Assembly (NCBI GenBank): GCA_964390795.1
Contig: CAYMLQ010000001.1
Span: forward strand, 2,365 to 66,364
From: an uncultured Lentisphaeraceae bacterium
GTDB taxonomy: Bacteria > Verrucomicrobiota > Kiritimatiellia > RFP12 > UBA1067
Direction: 5' to 3'
DNA length: 64,000 nucleotides
Below the pieces are notes generated by a model. It did not search any database. It was not told where the DNA came from and saw nothing but the letters and a program-made list of their open reading frames with translations. Below are positions 8,177 to 40,096 of the stretch, piece by piece. Made by a program: the position numbers and the translations under genes. The stretch's first letter is position 1. Every line of letters starts with the position of its first letter.

Positions 8177-8337
8177 CGCCAGCACCTCTCTTAGTTTCGC
8201 TACTGAAAACACCGACGTCACTGGATGACACAAATGATTAATGTTTGTTTAAAGTAGCATGGCTCCCATATAGGCGCAAGCCAAAATGTTGGGAAAACCC
8301 ATCCCGGGCGAGCGGTGCTGGCCGCGCCTCTCATTTT

Positions 8338-22000: not shown

Positions 22001-22265
22001 CAACCCGGTTGGACGTCGCCCACGCTGTAAACCCCGGCTTGTCGTAAACCGAAGCCTGAAGTTCAAAACAGTAACTGCATCCCAGCGTACGCCCGAAGTT
22101 AATCAGGAAAATCTGGCTCTCGCTCCGGGCATACCCCCGGGCACCCTCAATGTCTGAAGTCCACACGCCGGGCTCGGAGAACACGGGTGAAATCGTGGCC
22201 ACGGCCTCCGCCTGGCCGGCCCACAACAATCCTGCCAAGAACAAAATGGATCCAAACCTTTTCAT
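16056..22265 (-). CDS. Giant secreted multidomain protein (paralog 4): N-terminal thioredoxin-like CxxC module, a WW-VSSE module, Flg_new repeats, two tandem FGE-sulfatase (SUMF1-like) domains, He_PIG and the conserved C-terminal family domain
   Basis: The track ORF 16056..22280 begins at a GTG; I prefer the ATG at 22263-22265 (MKRFGSILFLAGLLWAGQAEA). The thioredoxin-like motif is FLINFGRTLGCSYC. Two FGE-like domains lie at aa ~625-900 and ~1005-1290 (nt ~19580-20408 and ~18410-19268) and share identical stretches (GVFEVTQRQWELVMG, LPTEAQWEY). The C-terminus reads ...GRGFFLWADKASYLNAQNKPVPYTFNWSYDFLLLGL. Confidence 0.85.
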   Translation of the reverse strand: MKRFGSILFLAGLLWAGQAEAVATISPVFSEPGVWTSDIEGARGYARSESQIFLINFGRTLGCSYCFELQASVYDKPGFTAWATSNRVALVYADYDAGSNDPLVQEVHRRYPTAINFPTIIVVSPSDGVTAIGQFHAVRNRSYNGQKLTPLNPASFASMVMSCSDDWNDPYDNVTTNAWTVSFAQDGSMIPEGGRTLTRTDLHDWFAFTNFVAGQRYELGRFSFGNEFDEDVVLPTYLLYTNQATAMAKQAWKALSFSAEEASDTFVSPVSGTLYVCATIADPVTNRVIEAENSRSMYALRHRVCGVPGPELDAGDLVWTTGGDAAWYGQWRESYDGNDAACSGPLQNGQSSWLETTVTGSGTISFWWRVSSEYDFDKLSFSADGVEQSFSSGTEDGWVQQSVVLTAGRHTLRWVYSKNGRQADGEDCGWLDQVSWTPTGFAVMFDACGGTVSPSVKPVTPGAAYGALPVPVRAGYTFEGWWTGGPDATGTRVTETTVVGSADTLYAAWTPLTCNVLFDPAGGTVTRELKSAAYGQAYGSLPVPSRAGYSFMGWWLTLNGVAGLEAANTRVPVATNHTLVAKWERNEAALYLVVDLSGGPGSASYPFSYLSAIPAGGWSDEYKTTRLVLRKIPAGVFTMGSPDDEVGRFDDEVQHEVTITKDFYAGVFEVTQRQWELVMGTRPSFFDNSSWYATRPVESVSYDDVRGSVAGAGWPGSSAVDVASFMGRLRAKTGLSSFDLPTEAQWEYACRAGTATALNSGKNLTAADRCDNLDVVARYGYNSGAILPDGSVDGIPPDADTNQGTAKVGSYLSNAWGLYDVHGNVAEWSLDGYGPFAGSVSDPVGAGVNPVRIFRGGFWWFDATWCRSANRNFNGSGMQDYGIGFRVFQTLTSSALDPVIVTVNALPEGVVESAYSVSFEVAGGMAPYTWSLVSGSLPAGLTLTTSGELRGAPTAVGSSSFTVGVTDRNARSATRAFTLAVYGSAGQRFLVIDLSGGSGASSYPISYLSEVPAGGWADAYKTTKLVLRRIPAGSFTMGSPATELGRDPKDDETQHGVTLTKACYAGVFEVTQRQWELVMGNKPSYFNNATVYATRPVESVSYVDIRGATAGARWPVSSTVDTASFIGKLRTKTGLLSLDLPTEAQWEYTCRAGTTLALNSGTSLTGADTCPNMAAVGRYTNSTVFASTARTVSTNAGTAKVGSHLPNAWGLYDLHGNVWEWCLDWQGTYESTVSDPAGAATGDLRIRRGGGCFDVAWVCRSANRGGGSVNFKGMAVTGLRLFAPLSAQAPVISSSAPAVEAVGAVEGGTLALSLTASDAADSDAARGMLAVSWFVDGTLKQVTKSGAPAAIASVFAYKPGAETVSGTVSRVVTVKAIAQDRQGASSERAWSVCVTNAPVAQKLTFKTLPVKVTGEADFDPGVTASSLLPVVYSSGNGAVAEIANNRVRIVGAGSAVITALQQGSVDFLPATATQTLTVKARLTTNVQGGGGSVSGAGAYVPGTRVTLTARPQSGYTFRRWEDGSQSPTRALVMPTADMAVTAEFMLTQNVSRPTIGTVSEQSATVGVFYSLPFDIQSDTLPTVTFSGLPLGLKYDAATRSLTGVPTAYGSKPVTVTVRNASGQTSVITFGMSVDSLPAWAQGTFNGWHMDSILGAGQISASVTALGKISGKIMVWGTNHTFGAASYFRTNTYPEAFCIRAEVKAGKSVLVLNCRISRLAAGTPQVLSVAEGDVMIGEAGCQNVVLYRNVWMDADMRAVATNYTGYYTAALPNLPSADASDDVAGSGYLTFTVDKAGGVKTAGKLADGTAVSASAPLIIDENGAVFMVVNVVPAEYKGGSLFGFVEWCLPEPEQADACTTLRLLESRSVLQWGSFNPLATARYGEGFSRELDLTGGWYDLLGNLYRYYDGMTLQVGISEDAADPAPLVFVGTNRYESVYWEPTGVETHVVTDRFGVMTGLAAPRAGTPVKVEGAYNYGETENDVGLTLSLTRNTGIFKGQFKAWFDYGTTHTYKSVAYEGVLTPETGATFDGVAGRGFFLWADKASYLNAQNKPVPYTFNWSYDFLLLGL

Positions 22266-22426
22266 ACTACACCCTTTCACTATGCTTACAGCACAATCTT
22301 CGCCGAAACATAAATGTTATTAAACAACGATTACATTGCTGAGTCAAGCACGAAAATGCACAAAAATGCTAATCGGTTCTGACAGGGGGGACGCGATTGA
22401 AGTGCGTATCGTGTGCGAAGCGACTT

Positions 22427-22552
22427 GGAGAACGGGCGTCCCCGCCCGTTGCGCGAAAGTCTCTGCAAGGCAGACACGCAGCCAAACGTGGAACGACAGG
22501 CTGCGGACCGATAGGCTACCGCCGTTCCAACGGGCGGGGACGCCCGTTCTCC
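22427..22552. promoter_or_regulatory. Pair of identical 24-bp palindromic elements (22427-22450 and 22529-22552) in the 310-bp region upstream of giant paralog 4; candidate operator pair
   Basis: GGAGAACGGGCGTCCCCGCCCGTT and its exact reverse complement AACGGGCGGGGACGCCCGTTCTCC, ~102 bp apart centre to centre. Each has an internal 8-bp stem AACGGGCG/CGCCCGTT. Neither is followed by a U-tract on either strand, so they are not terminators. A TTGACT...TAATAA promoter-like sequence for the minus strand lies nearby (~22300-22340). Confidence 0.5.
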
Positions 22553-22590
22553 ATAGCGTGCGACATTATTTCATCAGAAACGCACGAGCC

Positions 22591-25500
22591 TCAGTCGGCA
22601 CCCAAGAAGGGGCCGAACAGGAATTCGTAAGACCAGTTGAAGGCATAGCTCGTCGTTTGGCCGGCCGCGTTCCGGTACCAAGTCTTATCCGGGACGAGAT
22701 AAAAACCCATCCACTCGGGATAGCCCTGACTCGCATCGCGCACCGGCAGGAAGACGCCTCTGATCCCCACCGTAATGGTCTTCTGCTTATCGCCGCCTGC
22801 CGTTTCATAGTAGAAGAGGCAAGACCCCGTGAAGATGCCCGTCGCCTTGTTGGGCTTGACGGACATCGACCACGGATTTACGGACGCCGCAACATCGACT
22901 CGCGTGCCGGCCTTGACGAGCGTGACGGCCGGAAAAGCGACCGCTGCGATCCCCGATGCGAAGGCGGGCAGGCGTCCAGGTTCTGGCGCCGACGCCAGCG
23001 CGTAGCCGGACGTCCCTTGCTTGCCGTCGAAATCGGCAGGCGCGGTGAAGACAGACGCGATCCCCAGTTCGCTCGCGCCGTAGCGGTCCGTCAGGCTCAC
23101 CCTGCTGCTGTCGTAGTAACCGCCGGTCACCTCCACTCGGGTCGTGAAGCCGGCGATTCCGTCCGGCAGCCACCCGGTCGTCGGATCGTACCCAAACACG
23201 GCCTTCGGATCTGGATTGATCCAGCGTAGCCCGTTGAGATCGCCGCAAAGCCCGCTGGTCCCGCTGGCGGCCCCGTCTTCCGCCGGCTTCAGGTAGACAA
23301 GTCCGTACAGCCCTCCGCCCGCGCCATAACCTGAAGGCTTGCCGCACAGATAGAACGTCGCCCGATCATCCATACTGCAACAATCAGGCCCGTATAGCAG
23401 CACCGTCGAACCGCTCACCGCCTTGCCGTCCGCCACAACACCCGCGTAGGTGACCGTGCCGTTCGCCTTGACGGTGAAGGACAAATAGCCCGATCCGCCG
23501 GGGGCGTTCGCCGAACTCGCCTCGATAACGGGCAGCGCGACCGCATAGGTGCCAGCGTACGTCCGCATCCGGGCGATACCGGCAGGCTCGCTCCACACGT
23601 TGCGCCACAGATCATAAACACCGTCCGGCCGCCCTTCCAGCCTCAATTCCACACCTGTCCCGCTCTCTTGGATCGCCAGTGCGAGCGCCAGCACGTTTGT
23701 CCCCGCCCGCGCAAACAACTGGGCACGGAGAATACCCTCGGCCCGGCTATTGAATGCCCCGGCCGAGAACGAGTAAGTGATGCCGCGATAGGCGAGACGT
23801 CCTGAGAAGGCGCCATCCGCCGCCACCGCCAGCGCGCAGTTCCCGCTTCCGGAGCCCTCCGCCGACAGCACATAGCCGTCGTAATGACCTGTGACGGCCC
23901 CCAACGGAAGCACACGCCACGTAACGGTCACCGCCGTCCCCGCCACCGTCTCCGTACGCGAACCGCTCTTTCGCGAGACCACCGTATGCAGGTCAGCCCG
24001 ACCCTGCCCCACGCGTTTCGGCACGCCCGTCAGCCAGACGGCGCCGTCTCGTACGACCGCCGAGACACCGGCGGGCAACGCCCCGTTCTTGACTGTCACG
24101 CGCAGCGTGCCCTCGCCCGCGTTCGCGACGGCGAACGGCCCTGCCTCCCCATACACGCCGACCATCTGCTCCGGGATGACGACGCCTCCGGCTACCGCAG
24201 GATCATATCCGCCTTCGGTCGCGACGAACTCCGGCGAACCCTCGGGCAGGCACGTCACGGCCCAACGCGGACCGGCAGCGACCGCCCGGCGTCCGAGGCC
24301 ATCCGTGGCGACGGTGTCGACGCGCCAGTACAAAGGCTTCGCTCCTGCCTGAGCCAGCACGGCGTCCAGTCGCGCGCGCTCAGCGTCGTCGCCGGGATGG
24401 GGATAGACCGACTCGGGCTGCTCCGACATTTTTGCGAGTCTGCCGCTGGACACCCCCGCATACACCTCATAGCGGACCGTCACGCCCGCTGGGAATACAG
24501 CCTCCGCTACGACGTCCCGCCAAGACAGCGACAGCCCCCTGTTGATCACGGCGGCCTGGTCCGCCGGCTGCGGCTCCGCCGGCTGCGGCAGAGGATACCA
24601 CGCCACATTTCGGACGCCGCCCCAAACATGGGTCAACCCGCTCCCGCGACGCACCGTCCAGGCGGCGGACTGTTTGCCTGCCGGCACGCTGAATACCGCT
24701 CCCACCCGTAAACCCGCATTCGTGCCAGCGTCAACGACCGTCCCGCCCAGCACGAACTGCATCAGCGAATCATCACCCTCCGATCGCCGGTCGAACCCGA
24801 GAACACCCGGCCCGGTCAGAGTCGCGGACACCGTTGTCGTTGCCCTCGCCGCGACTGAGCCGCTCCGCAGCCAAGCCCCAGCGCGGTCATCATCAGAAAA
24901 ATACCCGTAGAACCAGACGCCGCCAACCGCCCGCAGGCCCGGCAGAAGGTTCGCGGCCTCCGCCGCATACTCGGCCAACGGTTGCACGACGAGGTCATCA
25001 CGGCGAGTCAGGGCAACCGTACCGACCGTTGCTGACAAAAGCGAGGCACCGCCCAAGGGAGTCAGTTTCAACGAGCACGCCCGGTCGGCTTGCCAGCCGG
25101 GCTCGTTGGTAAACGCAAAGGCGAAGGCCTTTGCGTCACTCTCGCCGTTCGCCCAAACCAGGGTCGCCACAGGCTTACGCGTGTTTCCAGAAACCTGCTC
25201 GACACGGCCGCTCACCGCACCGTTCGAACCCGCCAACCGCTGGACGCTGAACAGCGCGTTCGAGCCCTCCGGCAGCGTGACGGCCGCAGCAGGCTCAAAA
25301 CCCAGCCGGCCGGGCACGCGCATCGTCTGTTCCTGTAAAACCACGTCACAGACCGCCAGTTGCTCTCCGACAAAGCAGTTCTTGACCGCGTAGAGCGCCA
25401 CGCGGAACGTCTCGTCACCCTCCCAGACCCCATCCGGCAGCAACGGCACCGTGATCATTTTGGCGCGCTTCGGCCCGACGGACCACACAAGTTCGCCTTG

Positions 25501-26646
25501 CGCGTCAACGTAATCTAACCCCGGCAGGGCCGTACCGGGATCAGTCTCATAGCTCACGCGGACTTCGGCATCGTTCGAGGCCCCGCTAATGTTCACCGTT
25601 AACGTGACGGTGGGCACACGCTCGGACACCATCAGCCGATCAACGGCAAAGCGAACCGTGGCGGGCGGCGTCCCGTACCAATAGGCCAGATCGTACGCTT
25701 GCAACTGCTTGAGCCCGGTGAAACGGGAGACCTTCAGCCAATACCGCCCGGTCTGCGGGATCGTATAGGACAGAACGGCGATCGCCGACGGCGCCATCTG
25801 TCGCTCGGCCACACTCGCGCCCGACGCCGGATCGGCGAAAAGTTGCGCCCGCAACTCGTTGGTCACGCTCGTAGCGGTCGCCGCAAGTCTGAACGACCAC
25901 TGCGCGCCGGCGACGGCGTCGAACGCGTACCAGTCCGCCCCATCGGGCTCGCTCAGCGTGTGCGTTCCGCTGTACGCCTCCTCATCCTCGCAAACGGGTG
26001 CGACGAGACCGGTCGCCCCCTGGTAATAGTCGTCCGCCTCGTCCCAGTCGTCGCCCGAAAGAATCTGGCTCACATTGCGGAGCACCATGTCCAACGATAC
26101 CGTCGTGTTCAGCGGTGTGAACCGGCCCAGCCGGGTGCCGTCCGGACGGACACCGATCAAGGTCGGATATCCGACTTTCAGGTAGGAAACGCCTTTTACC
26201 GTCTGTGTCGGAGCACTGGGCACGGCATAGGAGGTCTGAATCGCATACCGGTTCGTGATCGCAGACTCCCCCTCTTCCAAGGTGATACCGGCGACCGCCT
26301 CAACATAGTTGGTCTCGCGCAGCCAGCACCAGTACTGATCGGCCCGGCCGGGGTTGTCGAACATCACAAGATAGAGCCCGTTGGTCTCCACATACGACTG
26401 CCATACAGAATGGGTCAGCACCATGCGTTCCAAAGGCTGACAGTGCGGACACCACCATGCGCCCGTAAACATCACGATGACGTTGCGCCCCTCATCCCTA
26501 GCTCGCCGCAGGGCGGCATCGTGATCCATCGTCCACTCCCCGACCTCCGCGCCGGTGTAACGCGGGACAATCGCGGGACGCTCAACGACGGCCCGTGCCT
26601 CTACGGCAAACAAAGCAAGCGCCGCAAGCACAACAAGGATCTTCAT
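22591..26646 (-). CDS. Giant secreted multidomain protein (paralog 5, divergent): N-terminal DsbA/thioredoxin-like module with WCPHC active site, Calx-beta domain and a divergent copy of the conserved C-terminal family domain
   Basis: The track ORF 22591..26691 starts at a TTG; I prefer the ATG at 26644-26646 (MKILVVLAALALFAVEARA). The CPHC codons are ~26440-26451. The Calx-beta-like segment reads LDYVDAQGELVWSVGPKRAKMITVPLLPDGVWEGDETFRVAL. The C-terminus (...GFYLVPDKTWYRNAAGQTTSYAFNWSYEFLFGPFLGAD) matches the family motif. Confidence 0.8.
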   Translation of the reverse strand: MKILVVLAALALFAVEARAVVERPAIVPRYTGAEVGEWTMDHDAALRRARDEGRNVIVMFTGAWWCPHCQPLERMVLTHSVWQSYVETNGLYLVMFDNPGRADQYWCWLRETNYVEAVAGITLEEGESAITNRYAIQTSYAVPSAPTQTVKGVSYLKVGYPTLIGVRPDGTRLGRFTPLNTTVSLDMVLRNVSQILSGDDWDEADDYYQGATGLVAPVCEDEEAYSGTHTLSEPDGADWYAFDAVAGAQWSFRLAATATSVTNELRAQLFADPASGASVAERQMAPSAIAVLSYTIPQTGRYWLKVSRFTGLKQLQAYDLAYWYGTPPATVRFAVDRLMVSERVPTVTLTVNISGASNDAEVRVSYETDPGTALPGLDYVDAQGELVWSVGPKRAKMITVPLLPDGVWEGDETFRVALYAVKNCFVGEQLAVCDVVLQEQTMRVPGRLGFEPAAAVTLPEGSNALFSVQRLAGSNGAVSGRVEQVSGNTRKPVATLVWANGESDAKAFAFAFTNEPGWQADRACSLKLTPLGGASLLSATVGTVALTRRDDLVVQPLAEYAAEAANLLPGLRAVGGVWFYGYFSDDDRAGAWLRSGSVAARATTTVSATLTGPGVLGFDRRSEGDDSLMQFVLGGTVVDAGTNAGLRVGAVFSVPAGKQSAAWTVRRGSGLTHVWGGVRNVAWYPLPQPAEPQPADQAAVINRGLSLSWRDVVAEAVFPAGVTVRYEVYAGVSSGRLAKMSEQPESVYPHPGDDAERARLDAVLAQAGAKPLYWRVDTVATDGLGRRAVAAGPRWAVTCLPEGSPEFVATEGGYDPAVAGGVVIPEQMVGVYGEAGPFAVANAGEGTLRVTVKNGALPAGVSAVVRDGAVWLTGVPKRVGQGRADLHTVVSRKSGSRTETVAGTAVTVTWRVLPLGAVTGHYDGYVLSAEGSGSGNCALAVAADGAFSGRLAYRGITYSFSAGAFNSRAEGILRAQLFARAGTNVLALALAIQESGTGVELRLEGRPDGVYDLWRNVWSEPAGIARMRTYAGTYAVALPVIEASSANAPGGSGYLSFTVKANGTVTYAGVVADGKAVSGSTVLLYGPDCCSMDDRATFYLCGKPSGYGAGGGLYGLVYLKPAEDGAASGTSGLCGDLNGLRWINPDPKAVFGYDPTTGWLPDGIAGFTTRVEVTGGYYDSSRVSLTDRYGASELGIASVFTAPADFDGKQGTSGYALASAPEPGRLPAFASGIAAVAFPAVTLVKAGTRVDVAASVNPWSMSVKPNKATGIFTGSCLFYYETAGGDKQKTITVGIRGVFLPVRDASQGYPEWMGFYLVPDKTWYRNAAGQTTSYAFNWSYEFLFGPFLGAD

Positions 26647-26687
26647 AGTGTTTACTTCTTTCCGAATAACTTGGCTGACTGATGGCT

Positions 26688-27521
26688 TCAAGGCGTAGCC
26701 TGCGGCTCGGCCGCTTCAGGCTCCTCCGGCTCGACATTTTCCTGTATCCATTGGGCCGCCGCCTCGGGCGTCGTGTATTCAGTCTGCGTCACGAATACGT
26801 AATGCTCACGGGCCACCTCTCCCGCGACTTTATTTTCGCCTTGGATGATGCCCACGAGCGCAGCAACCGCCAGGTCCTCTTTCAGCTGATCAACCGACAT
26901 CACGAGCGACTCCATGTCCTCCTGTTGACGCATCGAGCCCATGGCTGCAACCAGCAATTCAGCCTTCGCGTCATCCTCCTGGATCTCCTCGAAAGCCATT
27001 TTCCATTGGGTAAACGCATCCGACGCCACACTGTCGTCTTTATCGGCCAACATCTGCGTGAGTTCAGGCAGAGCCTTTAACCCAATCCATCCGAGAACGA
27101 TGAGCACGCGCGAACGGACGTCCGCGTCTTCCGAATCGAGCAACCTGCGGGCGATCTTCAGTGCGCCTTTTTCGTCGCCTGAATCCAGCAGGGCGCGCAT
27201 GGTGTCTGCATCGCGTTCATCTGGCGTACGCGCACGTGCAGGCGCGGCATTGGTCGCCGCACCGGTGGCCCGCCCGACTCCCCCTGTGGCCGTCCGGCTG
27301 GCGGGGCGCTCCAAACGCGCCCCGCTCTTTTCCGCGGCGATGCGGGCAACCGCCTGCGTTGACCCGAGAGCCGGCTCCCGAAGACCCGTCGTCCCGGCTA
27401 CCGGACCACGCCGTTGAAAGAACGCAAAACAGAGCACCCCCGCGCACACCGCAACAACGCTCAGCACTATCCAGACCGGCTTCACCAACCTAGTTGCCCC
27501 GCGTGCGCTCACTCGCCCCAA
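26688..27521 (-). CDS. Membrane-anchored HEAT/PBS-lyase-like repeat protein embedded between giant paralogs 6 and 5
   Basis: 277-aa ORF with a TTG start at 27519-27521, which overlaps the stop of paralog 6 (27509) by 13 bp. It has a single N-terminal TM helix (VWIVLSVVAVCAGVLCFAFF) followed by HEAT-like repeats (DADVRSRVLIVLGWIGLKALPELTQMLADKDDSVASDAF). Its stop at 26688 lies 41 bp before the paralog 5 ATG. The start codon is uncertain. Confidence 0.45.
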   Translation of the reverse strand: MGRVSARGATRLVKPVWIVLSVVAVCAGVLCFAFFQRRGPVAGTTGLREPALGSTQAVARIAAEKSGARLERPASRTATGGVGRATGAATNAAPARARTPDERDADTMRALLDSGDEKGALKIARRLLDSEDADVRSRVLIVLGWIGLKALPELTQMLADKDDSVASDAFTQWKMAFEEIQEDDAKAELLVAAMGSMRQQEDMESLVMSVDQLKEDLAVAALVGIIQGENKVAGEVAREHYVFVTQTEYTTPEAAAQWIQENVEPEEPEAAEPQATP

Positions 27522-30500
27522 CCCTCGCTCCAGTCGGGCAAGAAACGCTCGGCATCAATCGTGAACAGGGCGGAACCCAACCACGTCCGCGTGCCGACTT
27601 TCTCCGGAATCTGATAGAACCCGAGACCGGGCGTCTCCTCATATCCACTGCCGCTCGCTTTGCAGGGCGTCAGCACACCTTGGAATTTCAGCCCGACCTG
27701 TTCCTTCTGAAGCGTACCGAGCGCATTCCCGTACCACAAGCCGAACGTGCCGCTGAACAGACCTGTCGCACGCGTAAACTTCAGCGCCAAATTCCCCGGA
27801 TTCGTGGAATTCTCGAAGTCATACAATTTCGTGTTCGTAGCGTCTTTCGCCAGTGCGCGCGCGTCCGTCGACAGGGTATCGCCCACGACGTTCACCGCCA
27901 CGTTCCCATAGGTGTCGGGCGTACACAGCAGCACCGTGTAGGTGGTCGCGTCGAACGCGGCGGGCGCCTGCATCGCACCCACCGTCAGCACGGCGTCCAG
28001 ATAGTAGGTCTGCAGGCTGAAGATCGTGTCGTAATAGCCGCCAACCGGCACCAGCGCCAGCCCGAACCCGTCGGTTCCGCCCCGCGTCGCGTTGGCGTCG
28101 GCGTTGTACCAGTCAAGCTGGCCGGTGGCGACCGGCAGCCCGCTTTGCGGATCGCTCGCGATCACGAGCCAGCCTCCCGCCGCCATCTTGGCCTTCGCCG
28201 TGTACACGGGAATGAGCAACGCCGGAGCGCCGCTATCCTCATAATCGGACACGTAACCCGGCACAGCCGAAGCCGTCCAAGCCGTTCCGTCGGCCAAGAC
28301 GCCCGAGAGCTTCGCGCTGCCCGTCGCGGCCAGCGTGAGCGTCACATAGCCCGCCCCGGCCGGAGCGCCGTCAACCGGCTCCGCCACCGGCAGCGACGCC
28401 GCGTAATAGCCGGCCGCGGACTTGAACGCGGCGAGCGCCAGTGCGACCTTGCTGTTGTCCCTGACCAGCTTGCCGCTGTACGTCACCTCGCGGGCACTCT
28501 TGTTGTCAGCCGCAGGAATCCACAGCACGAGTTCGGCTGTGGCCAGCGCGTCCACCGCGCCCGGGTCCGTCGCGGCGCCGCGACAGGCCGCCACCGTCAG
28601 CGTGTTCGTGTAGGCTTTGCCCGCGACCGTACTTTTCAACGTCAGCAGCGCGAGCAGACCCGGCTGGCCACCCGCAACTTCGGGGATGCTCTCACTGAAC
28701 CCGCTTCCCGTGAACGCGTAGGTCTTGCCCGCGATCATCACTTTGGCGCTGAGCCCGCCCGCTTCGGCCGCCGTGTAGGAGGACACCGAGGCCAACGCCT
28801 CGTGCGCGTTCATTGCATCCGCCGTCAGCAGTCCGTTGAACGTGCCTGCGGCCAGGCCGGCCGGCGCAACACTGAATGGCGCGGCAAAGGTCGTGCCGGC
28901 CACCGTCGCGGTTCCGACCTTGACCGAGGCCTGAAAGATTGCAGTCACCGTGTTCGTCTTGGCAGGAATACCGGCGAGGTAGGTCTCTGCGCCGACCGTC
29001 TTCAGCACAAGTCCCTGCGGAAGTCCGGTGGCTTTGAACGTCTCGCCGTTCGGCGCGTCGAGCGGCCCGATCAGGTAGGAGAGCCCTTGGATCAGCTGAT
29101 ACCCCGCGCCGTCAGGATGGGCGAATGCAGACAGCGCGCCAACCACAAGATCCTCCGTCAGGGGTGCGCCCTGCGCCTCATTCCAGATGGTGAACGACCA
29201 GGCCGCTCCCGGGTTCGTCAGCTTGTCCTGCGCAGGATCGGAGGGGTCGTCGCCCGGAACCACCGAGTCCACCCGCCAGTAGTACGCCTTGCCTGCGGCA
29301 AACCCGTCGTATATGGAACAACTAGTGCAATACTCACCTTCGGTGGCGTAGTCGGAAATCAGCGCGCCGGTCCGGTTCAGCTTGGCAGCCGTGTCCGCGA
29401 TGTAGATGCGGAACAGGCCCACGCCCTCGGCCTTCCACCGGAACGTGCCTGAGTTCCCCAGCGACAGCACCGCCTTGTCCAGCGGCTCGACCAGCGTCGG
29501 CGCCCGCAGCGGCGTCCACTCGAACGGCTGGCCGCTCCAGTCGGCGAACCGACCGAAGACCTGGGCGTCCGCCTCCGAACCCGCCCCGCGCGTCACCGTG
29601 AACTTCACCGTCTGCGCCCCCTTGGCCACATAACGGACCACTTCCGCGCCGTCACCGCAGGCGATCGACTGGGAGCCGATCATACAGGTGAGGGCGCTGC
29701 CGTCACCCTCTGCGCCTCCGGAGAGCTCGCCCGCGAACCGCAACGTGCCCGGCCCGGTGAGCGTCACCGTCACTTCGGACTTGCCCTTTGCGGCCAGCGG
29801 GGCACACCGCAGGAGACCCTGCTCGTCGAAGAACCACGCGCCAGCCACGGAGGGCTTCAACGCGCTGCCGGTCATATTGCCGCCCGCAGCCACCCACTCC
29901 TCGAGCGTACGCGCGACGGACGGGTCGCGGATCTGGAACGCCACCGAGGCGGCCCCGAGCGTCGCTCCGCCGGACGCGGCCGTCAGCTTGACCGTGAACG
30001 CCTTGGCCGCCAGGAACGGGTCCTCGGTGGTCAGCGTGGCTACCGTAAACGGTTTGGGCGAGAGGTCGCCCGCCTCCCACTCCAAGGTCTCGGATGCAGC
30101 CTCAAAATGCGTGCCCGCCAAAGCCGTGCCAGCGACCGTTCCCGCCGTGACCGAAACGGCGCCGTCCGCGCCGTCCGCGCGGGCGATCCACAGGGTCACC
30201 GCGCCGCCTGCGCCAACCGTAACGGCCGGGGCTTTGGCGTTCGCAAAGGCGTTGATCTGCTCCGCGTCAGACCCGAAACCGCTGAATCCCAGTTTGCCCG
30301 GTGCCTTCTTCGTGATCTCCGTCAGGGTGACGACTGCGGTCGTCGGTGCCGCGAACGGCGGCACCAGCTCGTCCGCCTCCACTTCGCCCTCCGGCACCGT
30401 CTCGAGCAGGACCGAGAAGGTCCGGTCACTGTCCCAGCCCGGACGGAGATCCGGGATCAGGGGCACCGAGATCGTCTTAGCCAGGGAATCCCCGTTCGCC

Positions 30501-32929: not shown

Positions 32930-32965
32930 CTCGCCCTCCAACGTTTCACCTTTTCGAACCAAACA

Positions 32966-34159
32966 CTATTTCTGCGGCGGCTGGACCTGCGGCGGCTTGG
33001 GCTGCGGCTTCGCCGCCCGTGTCCACAGATTCGTCCCGTTCGGATAAACGATCGCGGCCTGCGCCTTCAAATTCTCCACATAGGCGTCGATTGCCTGCTG
33101 CTGCATCTGCTGGGTCAGATCCGCCTTAAGACTTGCCGGTGCGGCCAGTTCCGGCGCTGGCTCGCGACACAGGAGAATATGCGCCAACTTAAGGGATTCC
33201 GGCTCGATCACACGGCCCTTATCGTTCTTCTTGGCCGGAATATGTTCCAGCATTTTGACCAAATGAAACCCTTCGTCGTCTTCGAGGACGTCGCTGACCT
33301 CGCCCGGTTTGAGCGCGAAGACCGCCGCCCGCATCTTCAGATTCTGAAACTCGGTACGCTCAAACTCGCCCCAGTAACCGCTGTTGCCTGGCGCGGAGCG
33401 CTGACATTCGGAGTGCTGATCGGCAAGCGTGCCGAACTCGGTTCCTTTGATAATCTCTTCGCGCCACCCTTTAAGCCGGGCGATCTTCAGCGCATTGGTC
33501 GCGTCGATAGCCGCCTGTTCCCCACGAATCGCAGCGTAGGTGGCCTCCATAAACGCATCGTCCACCTTGATTTTTGGGGGGATGTTGGTCGCGATCAGCG
33601 TACTGACCCACACTGTCTGCTCGGCCTCCTTCAACAAAGCCTCTTCTCCGCCGAAAAACGCCTTTTTGAACACGTCCAGTTCCTGGCGCTCCCGTTTCGC
33701 CGCTGCCGCGATCAACTCCTCGGCACGCTTCCGCACCTCCTCCTCGCCCAGCACCTTCCGCTGCTTGGCATCCTGGATCAGAAGCTGCGTGCTGATAAAG
33801 CGGGGAATAAAGGTCTGAACCGCCATGCGCAGCATCGCATGTTTCTGAGCGTTCTGCGCATTCGGTGTCTCAGAGATCTGCTTGACGATCCGCTTCATCG
33901 CAAGGTCGTAGTCCTTACGCCTCAGCGGCGTACCGTTGACGGAAATGATCACGTCTTCCGGAGCCATCTGCTCGATCGTCTTGGAGACGCCGTTCGATCC
34001 GGCGCCCAGCAGCGCAGCGTCGACACGGTTGCTCGCGGAATGTGCCGGCTGTACCGCGACCTGTTCTCCGGACTTGCTTTTACCACAGCCGACAAGCGCC
34101 AAAAGGGCGAACGACAGTAAAGCTGGAAAAAAGATGATCATACTTCTGCACACAGACAT
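32966..34159 (-). CDS. Parvulin-type peptidyl-prolyl cis-trans isomerase lipoprotein (SurA/PrsA/PpiD-like chaperone); likely co-transcribed with the giant-protein array
   Basis: 397 aa with a lipoprotein signal (MIIFFPALLSFALLALVGCGKS). The rotamase domain reads LADQHSECQRSAPGNSGYWGEFERTEFQNLKMRAAVFALKPGEVSDVLEDDEGFHLVKM, preceded by SurA-like chaperone helices. Its stop at 32966 is 36 bp before the paralog 6 ATG at 32929. Confidence 0.8.
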   Translation of the reverse strand: MSVCRSMIIFFPALLSFALLALVGCGKSKSGEQVAVQPAHSASNRVDAALLGAGSNGVSKTIEQMAPEDVIISVNGTPLRRKDYDLAMKRIVKQISETPNAQNAQKHAMLRMAVQTFIPRFISTQLLIQDAKQRKVLGEEEVRKRAEELIAAAAKRERQELDVFKKAFFGGEEALLKEAEQTVWVSTLIATNIPPKIKVDDAFMEATYAAIRGEQAAIDATNALKIARLKGWREEIIKGTEFGTLADQHSECQRSAPGNSGYWGEFERTEFQNLKMRAAVFALKPGEVSDVLEDDEGFHLVKMLEHIPAKKNDKGRVIEPESLKLAHILLCREPAPELAAPASLKADLTQQMQQQAIDAYVENLKAQAAIVYPNGTNLWTRAAKPQPKPPQVQPPQK

Positions 34160-34296
34160 TTCGCGATTCTTCCTCGGTTGCTAGGTCACGTTCAATAAAG
34201 AGGTTTAATTTAACCACGTGAGTTCCCTGTTGTCAACGGGTCATTTGGACAGCAACAGGGCAAACAGGTGGGCGCCGTTAGGGCCGGAGGAACTTC

Positions 34297-34500
34297 GCGT
34301 GTCGTGTCGCACCGGGCGTGTTCCCCGCAAACCCGTCGCCGGCCCCTTGCCCTGCGGACGCCTGCGGGGAGGCGTCCCTACCAGGCTTCGCTAGCCCGTT
34401 GTGCGTGCGTGTCGTGTCGCGCCGGGTAGGGCGGGTTCCCCGCAACCCGCCGCCGGCCCCCGCCGTGCCCTGCGGACGGCTGCGGGGAGGCGTCCCTACC
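34297..34500. repeat. Two tandem copies (~34297-34382 and ~34402-34500) of a GC-rich REP-like palindromic element family
   Basis: Unit: CGYGTGTCGTGTCGCRCCGGG...GTTCCCCGCAAMCCGYCGCCGGCCCC...GCCCTGCGGACGSCTGCGGGGAGGCGTCCCTACC, with internal hairpin GGACGCC-TGCGGGG-AGGCGTCC. It lies between the paralog 7 stop and the PPIase gene. Related copies lie at 41633-41731, 58748-58793 (inverted) and a fragment at ~61023-61060. Confidence 0.75.
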
Positions 34501-34570
34501 TTCGCGCGTCCTGTCCATACACTCGTCGGTTGGTACCAGAAGAATACGAAAAGGGTGCGACCATGTGCCG

Positions 34571-37500
34571 TTACTGATCGACCGGTTCCACCGGTGTCGA
34601 CAGCAACAGGAAATCGTACGACCAATTGAACGGGTACGCGACATCCCGGTTCGATGCATTCTTGTACGAACTCTTGTCCGCCCACAAGAAGAAACCGCAT
34701 CCCTCCTTGCCATCCTCGGCATCCTCGCGCACGGGAGTCAGCAAACCCTCGAACGCGATCGCTTTTGAAGTGTGCGTTGTGACATAGTCAAACCATGCCT
34801 TATATGACCCCTTGAACAGACCCGTCGACCGCGTCAGGTTGATCGTCAACCCGATCGTGTTGTTTGTAACCGCCTTGTAGTCGTAAGCCGCACCAGCTTT
34901 CACAGGCGTCCCGACCTTCGGTGCCGCGAGACCGGTCATCACACCGTAACGGTTGGTGACGGGTGTCAGCGACAGGCCATCCGGATCCCACCAGACCGAC
35001 TCATACCGGTTTGTTCCGGAGATCAACACAGGCGTCGGCTCGTTCGCCGTGCCGACAGCCAACGTCATGCCAGCATAATACCGGTACAGGTTGCCCACCG
35101 TGTCATACCAGCCGCCGTACAAGCCTGTCTCCCGCTTAAAGCCCACGCCGTATTCGCGCGTGGCCTGCGCGTTGTGGCTCTCCCAGAGGAGCGCCTCGCG
35201 GTTCAGCGGGCGCACGACAGTCGGCCCTTCAGCGTCGGGCCGCACGAACTCGGCCAAACCGAAGAATGAGCCGCCCATGTAGGAAGAGGGCGCGGTGAAC
35301 AGCGCGACGAACACCACGCCGTCCGCGTCAAGCAGCAGCGTCGCGCTTGAGGAGACGGTCACGCCGTCCGCCAGCTTGCCCGCCACTTTGACCGCTCCGT
35401 TGCTGGTGGCCGTGAGGGCCAGATAACCGCTTCCGAAGTCGTCGTCGCCGGCGCCGTTCGCCTGAGGCAGCACCGTCGTATAGTAGCCGGCGGCAATCCC
35501 GGCCGCCCCAGCCCGCGCCGCGCTCAGCGGCCTGTCGCCCCAGCCGTTCCGGTAGAGCCTGGCCCCAAACGCCCCCTCGCCGTCCGCGAGTTCCGCGCAG
35601 CCGTTGGTAGGATTCACCAGCAGGGTCAAGACCACCCGGTTGGTTCCCTTAGAGGCTTTCGCGATCAGGTTGGTTGCGGCATACCAGCCATCTTGCGTTG
35701 GCTCACTGTAGCGGCGAGTCACTTCGAAAGCGTAATTCGTGACCGCAAAAACAAGCTTGCCCGTGATTTTTCCCGCCGCGTCGACCGTCAGCGTGGCCAC
35801 TCCGTACTCTTCCGGTACGGTCGCCTCGGCTTCACCCCGCCACGCGTAACCGTTGAACGCTCCGGTCGTCTCGCGGGCGTCGTCCGAGACCCACTCGATG
35901 TCAGAGACCCAGCCGTAGGCGCCCGCGCTGGCGTCGGTCGCCCCGCGCTTGAAAGTCCACGTCACGGTCTGCAAGCCAGCAGGCACCCAGACACGGTTCG
36001 CCCCGTTCGTCACGGTCTGCGCGACTCGCGTGCCGGCCTTCACGATGAAGGTGCAGCCGTTGCCGGTGGCATTGGTGGTGTCCGCATTGAACAGGATCGT
36101 TCCCGGCCCCGTCACTTTGGCCGTCATCACCGAAGAGCCGCTTCTTGAGGCAGGCGGCGCGCACCGAAGGACAGTCCCGTCTTCACCCGTGCCAAACCAG
36201 GCGCCGGCTGCGGCGCTGAACGGCACGCGCGTCACATCGCCGGCGTAAGCGGCGAGGGTCTGCGTGAACACGTCGTCGGTCACGTTCAGCATGGCCAGGT
36301 TTGCGCCTCCCGCCACGCTGGCGTTCGGCGAGGTGAGCGTCAGGGTGACCTTGCGCGCCTGCTGATAGCCTGCCTTGGTCGGCACCTGAACCTCCACCCG
36401 CTTGAGCCCGTCCTCCATGCTGGCCCACAGCGCATTGGTCTGGCCCAGTTTCAGCGTGCCATCCACCCAGGACAGGACGGAGGTCACTGCGCCCGAGTTC
36501 TTGCCGGTCCGCTTGAGCCAGAAGATCAGCTGATCGCCCTCCTTGGCCTCAATAGGGACTCTCGGCGAGAAGGCGTTGTTTCCCTCGCCGATACCGGCGA
36601 ACGCAAGCAGAGGCGCGGTCGGCCTGTCCTTTTCCGTCAGCGTCACCGTCATGAGAGCAAGCCCGTCCAGCTCCTGCGCCGTGTCGGGATCAACCGCAAG
36701 ATCCGCAAAAAAGGTCTCGGCGTCCTCCCACAGCGTGTCCTTCTTCAGCAGGGTCAGGGTCACGCTCTTGTCCGACAGATCCGCCGGCCCCCAGGTAACG
36801 GTCACATTCGTTGCGGCATAATCGCTGCCTGCGGTGGCTGTGCCGTTGCGGGTCGAGACCCGTGCGGTCACCAGCCCTTCCAGAACATCCTCGGCCTCGC
36901 ACCGGACTCGCAGCACGACGGTGCGATCCGACTCGCTCACGGTCACGGCGTTGGAGGTGAAGCCGAGGGCGCACCGCGGCACCTCGCGGTAAAGCAGCCC
37001 GTACTGGACGCAGGACGCCTCATCCGTCTCTCTCACGAGCGCCACAGTCAGCCACCCGCTGGCCGACGCTTGGAAGTCAATGCGGTTCGTCAGCAGGGTG
37101 GACAGCGGAACCTCAAGCCACGCGTTCGCGTTGGTGTAGAAGACGGCCTTGGCGGTCGACGCGGCGACACCCTCCTGAACCAGGTTCGTCAGGCTGACGC
37201 GGTAACGCAAGCCGGCCTGTAGGTTGGTGAAGACCAGCCAATCGGCCGTATCGGCGCCGTTCAGCGTGCCGGCCACCGACTGATTCAAACGGGCCATCGC
37301 GAGATGCAGCTCGGTGTTCTCCGCCCCAGCGTCGCGTGTGCCGTCGCGCGAACCGTCTGCGCCATCGCGCCCATCGAACTGCGCGTCCGTCTCTTGAATG
37401 GTAACCGTCGCGTTTGTGACACCCATCTCCACGGCACCGTCGGCGGACAGCCGCACGCCGAACGACCGGTCCCCCGTCCACAGGTTGCGGGTGTCGGGCG

Positions 37501-40096
37501 CGAGGTTAATCGTGAACATCCGGTTGGTCGCCTCGGGCTGGGCCTCGAAGGTGTAGTCGGCCGAGGCCTCGCCTCCAGCAAGTCCCTCCGTCAGGATATG
37601 GACCGTGGTGGTCTCTTCCGTGTTGCCTGTGCGCAGAACCGTCACCGCTGTGGCGCTGTCGGTGTCCTGTGCGGTCACCGCGGCCGCTTGGAAGCTGACG
37701 GCCGGCCTGATCCACACGCGGTAATTGAGCGTGTAACGGACATACGCGGTCTCTTCAGCCGCACGCGAAATGCGCAGCCAGACCCCGTTGGTGGCGGCAT
37801 CGCCGAACTGCACCAGCCGATTGGTGGTCAGCGTGGCCAGCGGAAGCCCCGAGGCGGCGGGAACCGGCACCAGATTCTGATAGAAGAAGTCCGCGACAGG
37901 TGCCGCGTTGCCCTTGACCTGATAGTCGCTGACGAGGAAGCGGTAATACGTGCCCGGCGTGACCGGCGAGAAGTAGAACCAGTCGTTGGTGTCAGACTTG
38001 CTCAGATACCGCTCGCCCGAGGGCGTGTTTTGATCCGCAAACGCGAGCGGGTGGGTCGTCCCCTGCACACCGTCATACGAATCGGCGACGTCCACCTCCG
38101 GGTCGGACGCGAGAACGACCGTGACGCTGTTCGTGCCGTTAGAAATGAAGTCCGGAGTTGGCACCAGTTCGACGGTGAAGTCACGCTGGCCGACCCAGCT
38201 CGCATTTTTGTCAAGCAGGTCGAGCGTGAGCGGCCGGGTCAGATCATTCGCAGCGAATGCGACCGTGCTGGTTTTCGCGGTGTAGTCGACGCTCCCCTTG
38301 GCCGTTCCGGGAAGCGTGCGGTAGGTGACCTGCGTAACCTCGCCGGTCTGGACGGTGCGCACAAGCTCCAGCGAGAGGGTGCCCGGAACGCTCAGCGGGC
38401 CGACCTGCCTGGAGCGGAACCCGACCACCGGCAGCGGCCATTCGGCAACGGTCAGCGCGTACCGGACGCCGACGGGCACACCAGGCTGGGACGCCGCACG
38501 CGTCAACGCCAGGTAAACACGATTTGTACTGGCAGCAGTAAACAGGAAGTTGGTCGTGTCCGAGGCATTCAAGGCGACCTGCCGCCAGAGCTGAACCACG
38601 GTTTCGGCGCCGGCGACCGCGTTCGTATAGAGACTGGCGGTCAGATCCTGCACGTTGGCCGCCTGATTCGCAACCGACACGCGGTAGCGCATGCCGGGAA
38701 TCAGGTTGGTGAGGGCGACCCAGTCCTGCGCATCCCCTGCGTTCAGCGAGCCCACGAGCGGCCACACACCGCTGGTGACCGCAAGACGGGTGGCTGTCTC
38801 GGACACGTCGTCGCTCGAGCCTGCGTCTCGCGCGTCGAGTGCGGGCTCGACCTCGGTGACGATCACGGCTAGGTTTGTCCAACCCGCTGCAGGCAACCCG
38901 TCCGACTTCAACGAAATGGAGAACGCGCGGTCACCCCGCCAAAGCCCGTTGATGATCGCAACGCTCAGGTGCTGCGTCACGTCTCCGGCCGCAAAACGTA
39001 CAAAGCCGTCGCCTTGCTGCAGATAGTCTGTGCCCGCTTTCGCTGTGCCGTCCTCGAGCGTGTAGGCCACCTGCGCGGCCTCGTCGAACTGATTGGTTCG
39101 GAAGACAGCAACCGTGACAACCGAATTCGTATCCTCTATCGAGACCGTTGGCGCTGTGAACCCGTAAGCATCCTCTTTTTTCGCGACGACCTGGTAGTTC
39201 AACGTATACGCCACCGCCGCAGTGACAACATTTGCCACACGGGTAAATTGAAGGTAGAGGATGCCTGAATTGGTGGCCTGATAGAGATATCCGTCTTGCG
39301 CAAACTGATTCAAGGCAACGGTATGCACTATGTTTGTGCTAGTCTTGCCAGAGTAGAAGACCACGCTTCCGATGTTCGCCGGGTCGCGTACCTCTGTCGC
39401 CTTAAACTGATACCATTTATCTTTCACCACATTCGTAACGCAGAACCAGTCGTTGGTGTCGGAAAACAAATGTGAGCGCTTCGAGGCTGCATAGTATTTC
39501 GCATCCAGCGAATTTTCGCCGTACTGGTTGCATAGCCGTTCGCTCTGGCTTGTTGCGGTGGCGAAAAGCGGCGTCGCCTTCGACCTAATGTCGTCGCGGT
39601 GATTGAGAAAACCATCCACCATGGACACAAACGTCTGTTCATTAAACGGCGTCAGCGTCACGCCGTTATAACGTCCACCCGTAATGTTCAAGAAAAACCC
39701 ATGCTTGGTCACGCTGTCACGCCCGTCGACAATGATGACAGACGGAAAGTTCACGACTTCCGGGTACCGCCTGCGCACCTCGCCCACGAGCGGATCGCCT
39801 TCGCCTTTGTTGTAGTCCGCGTAGACAAGCGGTATGCCTTTGGTACGGGACCACTCGTAGAAACTTGGGTTGCTATAGAGCGAGATGGCTGTCCCGTCAC
39901 AATACGCGCATCCACTCGTACGCCCTAAATTGATTAAATAGAACGTACCTTGACTCTTGGCGAATTCACGCGCCTCCAAGAAATCCGACGTCCACTCACC
40001 CACCCCGGGGCCATCCGGATTAATGGTGGTCGCAACGCTCGTCAGGGTAAAACCGAGAAGGCAAGAAACCAAAGCAACTTTCGTCAGTAGTCTCAT
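34571..40096 (-). CDS. Giant secreted multidomain protein (paralog 7): N-terminal thioredoxin-like CxxC module, several Calx-beta domains, Ig-like domains and the conserved C-terminal family domain
   Basis: 1841-aa ORF with ATG at 40094-40096 and signal MRLLTKVALVSCLLGFTLTSVA. The thioredoxin-like motif is FYLINLGRTSGCAYC, homologous to the paralog 4 N-terminus. Calx-beta motifs include GTDYLQQGDGFVRFAAGDVTQHLSVAI. The C-terminus reads ...GCGFFLWADKSSYKNASNRDVAYPFNWSYDFLLLSTPVEPVDQ. Confidence 0.85.
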   Translation of the reverse strand: MRLLTKVALVSCLLGFTLTSVATTINPDGPGVGEWTSDFLEAREFAKSQGTFYLINLGRTSGCAYCDGTAISLYSNPSFYEWSRTKGIPLVYADYNKGEGDPLVGEVRRRYPEVVNFPSVIIVDGRDSVTKHGFFLNITGGRYNGVTLTPFNEQTFVSMVDGFLNHRDDIRSKATPLFATATSQSERLCNQYGENSLDAKYYAASKRSHLFSDTNDWFCVTNVVKDKWYQFKATEVRDPANIGSVVFYSGKTSTNIVHTVALNQFAQDGYLYQATNSGILYLQFTRVANVVTAAVAYTLNYQVVAKKEDAYGFTAPTVSIEDTNSVVTVAVFRTNQFDEAAQVAYTLEDGTAKAGTDYLQQGDGFVRFAAGDVTQHLSVAIINGLWRGDRAFSISLKSDGLPAAGWTNLAVIVTEVEPALDARDAGSSDDVSETATRLAVTSGVWPLVGSLNAGDAQDWVALTNLIPGMRYRVSVANQAANVQDLTASLYTNAVAGAETVVQLWRQVALNASDTTNFLFTAASTNRVYLALTRAASQPGVPVGVRYALTVAEWPLPVVGFRSRQVGPLSVPGTLSLELVRTVQTGEVTQVTYRTLPGTAKGSVDYTAKTSTVAFAANDLTRPLTLDLLDKNASWVGQRDFTVELVPTPDFISNGTNSVTVVLASDPEVDVADSYDGVQGTTHPLAFADQNTPSGERYLSKSDTNDWFYFSPVTPGTYYRFLVSDYQVKGNAAPVADFFYQNLVPVPAASGLPLATLTTNRLVQFGDAATNGVWLRISRAAEETAYVRYTLNYRVWIRPAVSFQAAAVTAQDTDSATAVTVLRTGNTEETTTVHILTEGLAGGEASADYTFEAQPEATNRMFTINLAPDTRNLWTGDRSFGVRLSADGAVEMGVTNATVTIQETDAQFDGRDGADGSRDGTRDAGAENTELHLAMARLNQSVAGTLNGADTADWLVFTNLQAGLRYRVSLTNLVQEGVAASTAKAVFYTNANAWLEVPLSTLLTNRIDFQASASGWLTVALVRETDEASCVQYGLLYREVPRCALGFTSNAVTVSESDRTVVLRVRCEAEDVLEGLVTARVSTRNGTATAGSDYAATNVTVTWGPADLSDKSVTLTLLKKDTLWEDAETFFADLAVDPDTAQELDGLALMTVTLTEKDRPTAPLLAFAGIGEGNNAFSPRVPIEAKEGDQLIFWLKRTGKNSGAVTSVLSWVDGTLKLGQTNALWASMEDGLKRVEVQVPTKAGYQQARKVTLTLTSPNASVAGGANLAMLNVTDDVFTQTLAAYAGDVTRVPFSAAAGAWFGTGEDGTVLRCAPPASRSGSSVMTAKVTGPGTILFNADTTNATGNGCTFIVKAGTRVAQTVTNGANRVWVPAGLQTVTWTFKRGATDASAGAYGWVSDIEWVSDDARETTGAFNGYAWRGEAEATVPEEYGVATLTVDAAGKITGKLVFAVTNYAFEVTRRYSEPTQDGWYAATNLIAKASKGTNRVVLTLLVNPTNGCAELADGEGAFGARLYRNGWGDRPLSAARAGAAGIAAGYYTTVLPQANGAGDDDFGSGYLALTATSNGAVKVAGKLADGVTVSSSATLLLDADGVVFVALFTAPSSYMGGSFFGLAEFVRPDAEGPTVVRPLNREALLWESHNAQATREYGVGFKRETGLYGGWYDTVGNLYRYYAGMTLAVGTANEPTPVLISGTNRYESVWWDPDGLSLTPVTNRYGVMTGLAAPKVGTPVKAGAAYDYKAVTNNTIGLTINLTRSTGLFKGSYKAWFDYVTTHTSKAIAFEGLLTPVREDAEDGKEGCGFFLWADKSSYKNASNRDVAYPFNWSYDFLLLSTPVEPVDQ

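Follow-up and report, generated by a model that had tools for sequence, protein, structure and literature searches.

Why should an exported protein of more than a thousand residues begin with a thioredoxin-like module? The question is raised by a 64,000-nucleotide stretch of DNA from an uncultured Lentisphaeraceae bacterium (GenBank assembly GCA_964390795.1, contig CAYMLQ010000001.1, positions 2,365 to 66,364), called the window throughout, in which the list of open reading frames (ORFs) holds seven giant ORFs, P1 to P7, all on the minus strand and in one array (Table 1). Three of the encoded proteins, P4, P5 and P7, carry a CxxC pair near the N-terminus. Nearly all that is understood of extracytoplasmic disulfide chemistry in bacteria comes from small Dsb proteins; what is new here is a set of two thioredoxin-fold subfamilies that head very large exported proteins within a conserved cassette of a parvulin peptidyl-prolyl isomerase (PPIase) gene and a HEAT-repeat gene, and besides the window, other Lentisphaerota metagenome-assembled genomes (MAGs) and many metagenomic lineages have such heads.

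The CxxC pairs of the heads are not a chance occurrence, because the 112 Cys among the 12,208 residues of the seven giants would be expected to yield about one CxxC, and four are present, of which three align in one column of the homologous modules. The Cys content of the giants ranges from 0.65 to 1.2%, with 25 Cys in P4, so that the original prediction, in describing them as cysteine-poor, had overstated the case. In P4 the CSYC lies within FLINFGRTLGCSYC and in P7 the CAYC lies within FYLINLGRTSGCAYC; in all three proteins the CxxC sits 40–65 residues downstream of a signal peptide (predicted by eye), and a conserved F-P-T (P4), F-P-S (P7) or Y-P-T (P5) occupies the cis-Pro position. The three heads are the first part of each protein to leave the Sec channel. 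We refer to the P4 and P7 modules as type A and to that of P5 as type B. P4 and P7 share 37% identity over 212 aa (E 4e-44), rising to 45% for the modules alone, and P5 and P7 share 27% over 73 aa (E 2e-5); at the profile level, types A and B align with an hhalign probability of 99.5% (E 2.7e-23), CxxC on CxxC and Pro on Pro.

The fourth CxxC of the giants, a CTSC in P6 (aa 1212–1215, 29318–29329, minus strand), is outside any thioredoxin module. It has a counterpart, CIGC, at the same place in the protein P0010, which by its flanks and C-terminal sequence seems P6-like (by eye) yet has a type-A thioredoxin head.

Structurally, an AlphaFold2 model of P4 aa 27–175, built from a 35-sequence alignment, reached a predicted local distance difference test score (pLDDT) of 95.7 and a predicted template-modelling score of 0.90, and its order of elements (β-α-β-α-β-α-β-β-α) is that of the thioredoxin fold. 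In this model, Cys42 immediately precedes the helix 43–53, Cys45 falls within the first turn of that helix, and Pro97 directly precedes the strand 98–102, where the cis-Pro loop belongs. Foldseek against the PDB returned 37 matches at E <= 1e-3, essentially all of thioredoxin fold, ranked with DsbH (2ju5) first, followed by a Thermus thioredoxin, 3f9u from Bacteroides, DsbD-gamma, ERp18 and AGR2/3; non-catalytic thioredoxin-like domains, e.g., the UAS domain of UBXD7, are also among them. The fold extends to P7 because its module is 45% identical to the modelled one, and to P5 because of the 99.5% hhalign probability to type A.

Family assignment agrees with this picture. P5 passes the Pfam Thioredoxin_7 (PF13899) cutoff of 27, with 37.0 bits for the whole protein and 41.2 for the module alone, and the P4 module, aligned along the entire model, falls just short of that cutoff at 25.5 bits (E 1.5e-5); P7 had no Thioredoxin_7 match in a whole-protein Pfam scan, and its module scores 151.6 bits against the type-A profile. 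Across the alignments described below, Thioredoxin_7 was matched at E <= 0.01 by 16 of 17 type-B and 20 of 35 type-A modules. Profile searches of PDB sequences had DsbH as best match for both types (2.5e-11 for A, 1.9e-8 for B), and DsbH was also the first real phmmer match of P5 in the PDB. The top phmmer matches there, designed “Cake” beta-propellers, were rejected as an artefact of summed repeats, no single stretch of which passes. It is thus near certain that the heads of P4, P5 and P7 have a true thioredoxin fold and belong to the Thioredoxin_7 / DsbH / DsbD-gamma clade; by their scores, P5 is a formal Thioredoxin_7 member, and P4 and P7 are best treated as a divergent sister group below the cutoff. 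The original prediction had read a WCPHC in P5, a CSYC in P4 and a CAYC in P7 as parts of homologous thioredoxin-like modules: the three motifs are where it put them, the homology holds (hhalign 99.5%), and so does the fold, given the P4 model with its CxxC at a helix N-terminus and its conserved Pro at the cis-Pro position. Its label “DsbA-type” for the P5 site did not survive, since CPHC is the one element of its sequence that recalls DsbA, the family that P5 matches is Thioredoxin_7, and among solved structures the reductase DsbH is nearest.

Two head subtypes and a common tail

To place the modules, the P4 and P7 alignment was used as a profile query against 1.84 billion cluster representatives, giving 461 proteins at E <= 1e-3, of which the 150 representatives listed are the basis of the module and architecture counts that follow. 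A word-indexed protein search gave no match with the P7 module, and 5 proteins with the type-A profile. Type A is marked by G-C-x-aromatic-C (G-C-[S/A]-Y-C in the window), and type B by W-C-P-x-C together with an insert that separates strand 3 from the cis-Pro strand. Within the type-A alignment, which holds 35 of the 43 modules that passed selection (the eight omitted include both modules without CxxC), the two Cys are the sole invariant columns, and G12, W14, A25, W61 and P97 are conserved at >= 90%; within the type-B alignment of 17 modules, W-C-P-x-C and Pro133 before strand 4 are invariant, and the insert spans 60–70 residues (~59 aa in P5). Overall, CxxC is kept in 251 of 273 modules. 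The CPHC of P5 is retained in both of its full-length orthologs, which come from MAGs (L002, 59% identity over 1357 aa; L009, 54% over 1387 aa), and the dipeptide varies among type-B relatives (CPYC, CPWC, CPDC, CPNC). As judged from these alignments, A and B are two thioredoxin-fold subfamilies so far without names.

The fusion to giants recurs well outside the window. Among the 150 representatives listed, 61 are at least 900 aa long, and 58 of these carry the module within their first 60 residues. In an architecture census of the same representatives plus the three window proteins, those of >= 900 aa comprised 16 with type A alone, 42 with A followed by B in tandem, one with ABAB and one with B alone; since the search started from type A, this census under-samples B-only proteins. 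The short members of the set are for the most part canonical tandem CGWC Thioredoxin_7 proteins. No window protein bears both types: P4 and P7 have A, and P5 has B. None of the ten representative clusters that were looked up bears a name beyond “hypothetical protein”, and the literature searched held no description of a thioredoxin-headed giant architecture. The proposal that such a fusion is unusual is therefore borne out for the literature searched and contradicted in sequence space, where 61 of the 150 listed representatives reach 900 aa; the suggested search for the same fusion elsewhere succeeded, with 42 giants in the census bearing the A+B tandem. The further suggestion that variation within CxxC reflects different roles fits the finding that A and B are distinct subtypes that co-occur in tandem elsewhere. 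In a different setting, P0001–P0004, P0008 and P0014 are Asn/Ser-rich low-complexity proteins with an N-terminal membrane anchor and 2–4 tandem C-terminal type-A modules, some of which have lost CxxC; because these proteins come from metagenomic contigs, type A is not confined to giants of the Lentisphaerota kind.

At the opposite end, alignments revealed a ~450-aa C-terminal domain common to all seven giants, in a divergent version in P5 and P6, which matches nothing in Pfam, NCBIfam or PDB sequences. A scan of MAGs with five of the seven C-terminal domains found it at 29 loci, most labelled Lentisphaeraceae/Lentisphaerales, Victivallales or Victivallis and some only “Verrucomicrobia bacterium” or “bacterium”. 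In these relatives the N-terminal slot is filled by CHAP, ice-binding-like, Laminin_G_3, DUF2271 or FGE-like heads, and proteins of ~600 aa made up of a type-B head and the C-terminal domain occur elsewhere. On this comparison, the family pattern is a variable head on a constant tail, with the type-B head plus C-terminal domain as its minimal unit. Autotransporters offer a parallel, in that a constant C-terminal domain bears swapped heads (here thioredoxin A, thioredoxin B, C10, M64, FGE-like, CHAP, ice-binding-like and Laminin_G) and a SurA-like PPIase is encoded alongside; the C-terminal domain of the giants, however, matches no autotransporter, Pfam or PDB family.

Between head and tail, a ~130-aa repeat is present in five copies in P1 (aa ~640–1910) and once in P4 (aa ~320–440, ~20960–21320, minus strand). 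It ends in G-W-[VL]-D-Q-[VL]-x-W, has a conserved “HDG.DAA.SG”, lacks a Pfam match, and is possibly lectin-like. P4 also has two FGE-sulfatase-like domains (aa 637–895 and ~960–1240), which both score best against PvdO and GldK-type models; the first has a single Cys (…WCRSANR…) at the site of the FGE catalytic pair (by eye), and the two are probably not FGEs.

The PPIase and HEAT gene cassette

Two genes among the giants lead beyond the array itself. The first encodes a parvulin PPIase that has an L-V-G-C lipobox (by eye) and a region resembling SurA-N, and the stop codon of this gene ends 4 nt ahead of the start of P6. An ortholog in L005 (E 1.7e-91) is directly followed by an ortholog of the N-terminal part of P6, and homologs abut thioredoxin-headed giants in L031–34. 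The second encodes a single-pass membrane protein whose HEAT domain may be periplasmic, as guessed from the positive-inside rule, and which is 32% identical over 257 aa (E 5e-38) to the product of the gene that follows an A+B giant in L032. In L002 and L009, other HEAT homologs adjoin the orthologs of P5, and homologs also lie near type-B thioredoxin proteins in L031–34. Both genes flank an A+B giant in GCA_002405095.1, where an overlapping PPIase gene precedes the giant and a HEAT gene with 32% identity to that of the window (E 5e-38) follows it. A small gene upstream of P7 (40234–41205) has no relationship to the 260-aa gene that precedes the PPIase gene in L032.

Scanning metagenomes with the type-B alignment gave 80 loci, 54 with a type-B ORF and 26 without one, which served as controls; cassette genes were counted among stop-to-stop ORFs with our own hidden Markov models, each built from 3–4 sequences. 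PPIase was encoded at 25 and HEAT at 21 of the 54 type-B loci, with at least one of them at 36 and both at 10, versus neither gene at any of the 26 controls. At 19 of the 25 PPIase loci, the PPIase ORF was within ~105 bp of the next same-strand thioredoxin ORF or overlapped it. The type-B loci also encoded C10-headed paralogs (10/54) and a Wzy_C-like (O-antigen-ligase-like) membrane protein (13/54). A compact operon in L048 (1127–13659) brings these together in the order PPIase, Wzy_C, a type-A thioredoxin protein (587 aa), a C10 protein (654 aa), a protein with a type-B head plus C-terminal domain (599 aa), a 282-aa protein, two HEAT proteins and a sugar transferase. Because these operon proteins are 587–654 aa long, giant size is not essential. 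The trio of thioredoxin A, thioredoxin B and C10 heads is thus present in the window and again in distant genomes.

Judging by gene order, the conserved neighbourhood is a parvulin PPIase, type-A and/or type-B heads and a HEAT membrane protein, which a Wzy_C-like protein, C10-headed paralogs and glycosyltransferases often join. Among distant metagenomic relatives, Wzy_C is part of the cassette also in L046, L051, L111, L091 and L097, and glycosyl/sugar transferases are encoded in L048 and L031/L032; the window itself has no Wzy_C homolog. Because Wzy_C and these transferases join the cassette, there are hints that its proteins carry glycans or are anchored to a glycan at the surface.

Candidate roles of the heads

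Functionally, we posit that the heads would perform thiol:disulfide exchange outside the cytoplasm, acting as reductases or isomerases rather than as DsbA-like oxidases, and that they would do so in trans, on disulfide-bonded substrates or on Cys-dependent sibling heads (C10; CHAP in relatives). The heads sit on long PPC and Calx-beta stalks that end in the ~450-aa C-terminal domain. Exchange is their most likely chemistry because, among hundreds of homologous sequences, no features are better conserved than the CxxC pair and the cis-Pro position, and a reductase or isomerase is favoured over an oxidase because the closest characterised relatives, DsbH and DsbD-gamma, are reductases. DsbH is described, in a passage of PMC5193440 that cites Mac et al. 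2008, as a reducing oxidoreductase resembling thioredoxin and DsbD-gamma. The direction and targets of the chemistry are uncertain, and exported exchange with reductase or isomerase action and targets in trans, taken jointly with the fold and family, strikes us as somewhat likelier right than wrong. The original prediction had proposed hinge or mucin disulfides as targets, which is speculative; its other idea, intramolecular folding of the giants, is weighed below as the alternative in cis.

Comparison with known systems helps to frame this proposal. DsbH of Chlamydia pneumoniae (2ju5) is the best structural and profile relative, sharing an exported thioredoxin fold, a CxxC and an aromatic-Pro-Thr loop, and its host and Lentisphaerota both belong to the Planctomycetes–Verrucomicrobia–Chlamydiae superphylum. 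DsbH, however, is a free periplasmic protein of ~150 aa with CMWC, whereas the window modules head proteins of 1,350–2,070 aa, have ~14% sequence identity to it and, in type B, an extra 59-aa insert; P5 scored 27.6 bits against the NCBIfam DsbH equivalog (NF043050, cutoff 190), and the modules, though DsbH-like in fold and clade, are not DsbH orthologs. DsbD-gamma and 3f9u-type proteins belong to the same fold clade and likewise tether a thioredoxin domain to a larger envelope protein, and in DsbD that tethered domain is a relay for reductant. In DsbD, the thioredoxin domain is C-terminal to a membrane domain, whereas the window module is N-terminal, no DsbD beta or Ig-like alpha partner of it was found, and no electron source was identified in the window; no DsbD or CcdA domain was found in P4, P5, P7 or the window that would place them with the DsbD / ScsB gamma domains. 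Protein disulfide isomerases (PDIs) resemble the 42 census giants in having two different CxxC thioredoxin domains, A then B, with non-catalytic domains between, and AGR2, AGR3 and ERp18 are among the fold matches of the P4 module; unlike PDI, the giants have no b/b' substrate-binding thioredoxin domain, occupy a bacterial envelope, and in the window carry A and B on separate proteins. Pneumococcal Etrx1 and Etrx2 are small surface-exposed thioredoxin-family lipoproteins of Gram-positive bacteria that are coupled to CcdA and MsrAB. They share with the heads the concept of a thioredoxin-fold reductase displayed outside the cytoplasmic membrane, but no CcdA/MsrAB-type partners were seen near the giants, and the architecture and gene cassette differ entirely.

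Several results weigh against reductase or isomerase activity in trans. The CxxC is lost in 22 of 273 modules, the type-A head is not a fixed part of its giants (a P4-like FGE giant in L002 does without it), and the confident model covers the P4 module only, single-sequence AlphaFold2 of P5 aa 28–285 having given a pLDDT of 31. The choice of reductase over oxidase is taken solely from the nearest characterised relatives, export beyond the periplasm is an assumption, and no DsbD/CcdA, DsbB or VKOR gene that would recycle the CxxC lies within the 64-kb window, though such genes may lie elsewhere in the genome. Finally, the median Cys content outside the module is 1.11% in thioredoxin-headed and 0.75% in thioredoxin-less giants (p 7e-4), a comparison confounded by taxon, as the two sets come from different taxa. 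This last result favours a role in cis, in which head and PPIase would act as folding catalysts that form, reshuffle or prevent disulfides in their own giant or, as it passes through the periplasm, in a sibling one, with no external substrate. Such a role would suit a head that directly follows the signal peptide and so is first out of the Sec channel, as well as the tight linkage to a dedicated parvulin PPIase, itself a folding catalyst. We nonetheless regard it as unlikely, since the difference in Cys density vanishes within the window (1.06, 1.01, 0.67 and 0.66% in the thioredoxin-less giants, which share their domain types with the others, versus 1.21, 1.02 and 0.65% in the thioredoxin-headed giants), and the ~600-aa proteins of type-B head and C-terminal domain leave little polypeptide to fold.

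The heads could also be redox-inactive, a binding or scaffold domain of the UAS or ERp29 type in which CxxC is a structural disulfide or a metal site. The UAS domain of UBXD7 among the fold matches, the 8% of modules without CxxC and the His inside the P5 motif all speak for this, but no positions are better conserved in either subtype than the two Cys, which are accompanied by the cis-Pro position typical of catalytic folds, and the model places the first Cys at a helix N-terminus as in active enzymes, which makes inactivity decidedly improbable. Least probable is a DsbA-type periplasmic oxidase that introduces disulfides and is reoxidised by DsbB. Its appeal comes from P5, which with its two orthologs carries CPHC, the tetrapeptide of Escherichia coli DsbA, and whose 59-aa insert lies, topologically, where DsbA has its helical domain of about 65–80 aa. 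That insert, however, has no sequence similarity to DsbA, and CPHC alone is no DsbA marker because type-B relatives vary the dipeptide freely. P5 had no match to Pfam DSBA (PF01323) or Thioredoxin_4 up to E 0.1, nor did any of the 17 type-B modules at E <= 0.01, and P4 and P7 matched neither family; DsbA chains, many of which are deposited, were absent from the PDB profile searches (E <= 0.01) and from the Foldseek matches listed. In the P4 model, a single short helix (81–89) stands at the site of the helical domain, so that there is no helical-domain insertion, and P7 is alike by homology. With DsbB and VKOR genes absent from the window too, we rejected DsbA identity for the heads on the grounds of family, fold, missing insertion in P4 and P7, and variable dipeptide.

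Returning to reductases or isomerases that act in trans, their presence beside C10 and M64 heads would allow anaerobic degraders of glycoproteins to open disulfide-stabilised substrates, or would keep secreted cysteine peptidases active. Extending this to the whole neighbourhood, we offer, as a tentative and rather doubtful proposal, that the PPIase, the A- and B-headed proteins and the HEAT protein form a widespread envelope system not described before, a surface redox-plus-protease machine whose heads would open disulfide-bonded targets or keep Cys-peptidase heads reduced outside the cell. The cassette is the part that could prove a new system, and the window supplies a defined gene set for it (P4, P5, P7, the PPIase and the HEAT gene).

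The giant array and its surroundings

Coordinates of the array, the modules and the cassette genes are collected in Table 1. A protein identical to P7 is present on a Logan contig of SRR12261223.

Table 1. Features of the giant array, with examples of related proteins from other loci
Feature	Position	Strand	Description
P1	335-8233	minus	C10 head with I69 prodomain
P1 C-terminal domain	338-1717	minus	
P2	8338-12213	minus	C10 head with I69 prodomain
P2 C-terminal domain	8341-9720	minus	
P3	12392-15955	minus	M64 head
P3 C-terminal domain	12395-13774	minus	
P4	16056-22265	minus	~2069 aa from ATG 22265, ORF extends to 22280; signal peptide, type-A thioredoxin head, PPC-like, lectin-like module, 2x Flg_new, 2x FGE-sulfatase-like, He_PIG, C-terminal domain
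P4 type-A module	21756-22202	minus	aa 27-175
P4 CSYC	22068-22079	minus	aa 68-71
P4 F-P-T	21909-21917	minus	
P4 C-terminal domain	16059-17438	minus	
P5	22591-26646	minus	~1351 aa from ATG 26646, ORF extends to 26691; signal peptide, type-B thioredoxin head, PPC-like, Calx-beta, shared C-terminal domain
P5 type-B module	26044-26562	minus	aa 44-216
P5 WCPHC	26440-26454	minus	ORF aa 80-84
P5 insert	26176-26352	minus	59 aa
P5 Y-P-T	26161-26169	minus	
P5 C-terminal domain	22594-23973	minus	
HEAT-repeat single-pass membrane protein	26691-27521	minus	directly upstream of P5; Pfam HEAT_2, 30 bits (cutoff 27.7)
P6	27509-32962	minus	1817 aa; no thioredoxin head; between PPIase and HEAT genes; PPC-like repeats, Calx-beta, shared C-terminal domain
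P6 C-terminal domain	27512-28891	minus	
Parvulin PPIase	32966-34159	minus	directly upstream of P6; Pfam Rotamase, Rotamase_3, weak SurA_N
P7	34571-40096	minus	1841 aa; signal peptide, type-A thioredoxin head, PPC-like, Calx-beta x4 (Pfam), shared C-terminal domain
P7 type-A module	39587-40030	minus	aa 23-170
P7 CAYC	39899-39910	minus	aa 63-66
P7 F-P-S	39740-39748	minus	
P7 C-terminal domain	34574-35953	minus	
Relatives with other heads (loci L001-L029), examples	L008 8528-10387; L022 8201-10060; L026 2397-4256; L012 5708-7567		

Upstream of P7, a strong terminator-like hairpin lies at 40207–40176; promoter and terminator scans were otherwise uninformative. Long plus-strand ORFs run antisense to the array (e.g., 527–2350, 8245–11136, 13109–14716, 27494–29452 and 37304–38872), and with their Arg/Gly-rich translations they look like by-products of the 62–68% GC content, not genes. 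Farther along the window, among the housekeeping genes guaA, recA and alaS, are a gene for a Schlafen AlbA_2 / HATPase_c_4 / HTH protein (43976–45532, minus strand) and one for an ORF6N-domain protein (56224–56805, plus strand), both perhaps singletons linked to defence or phages and of no bearing on the thioredoxin heads.

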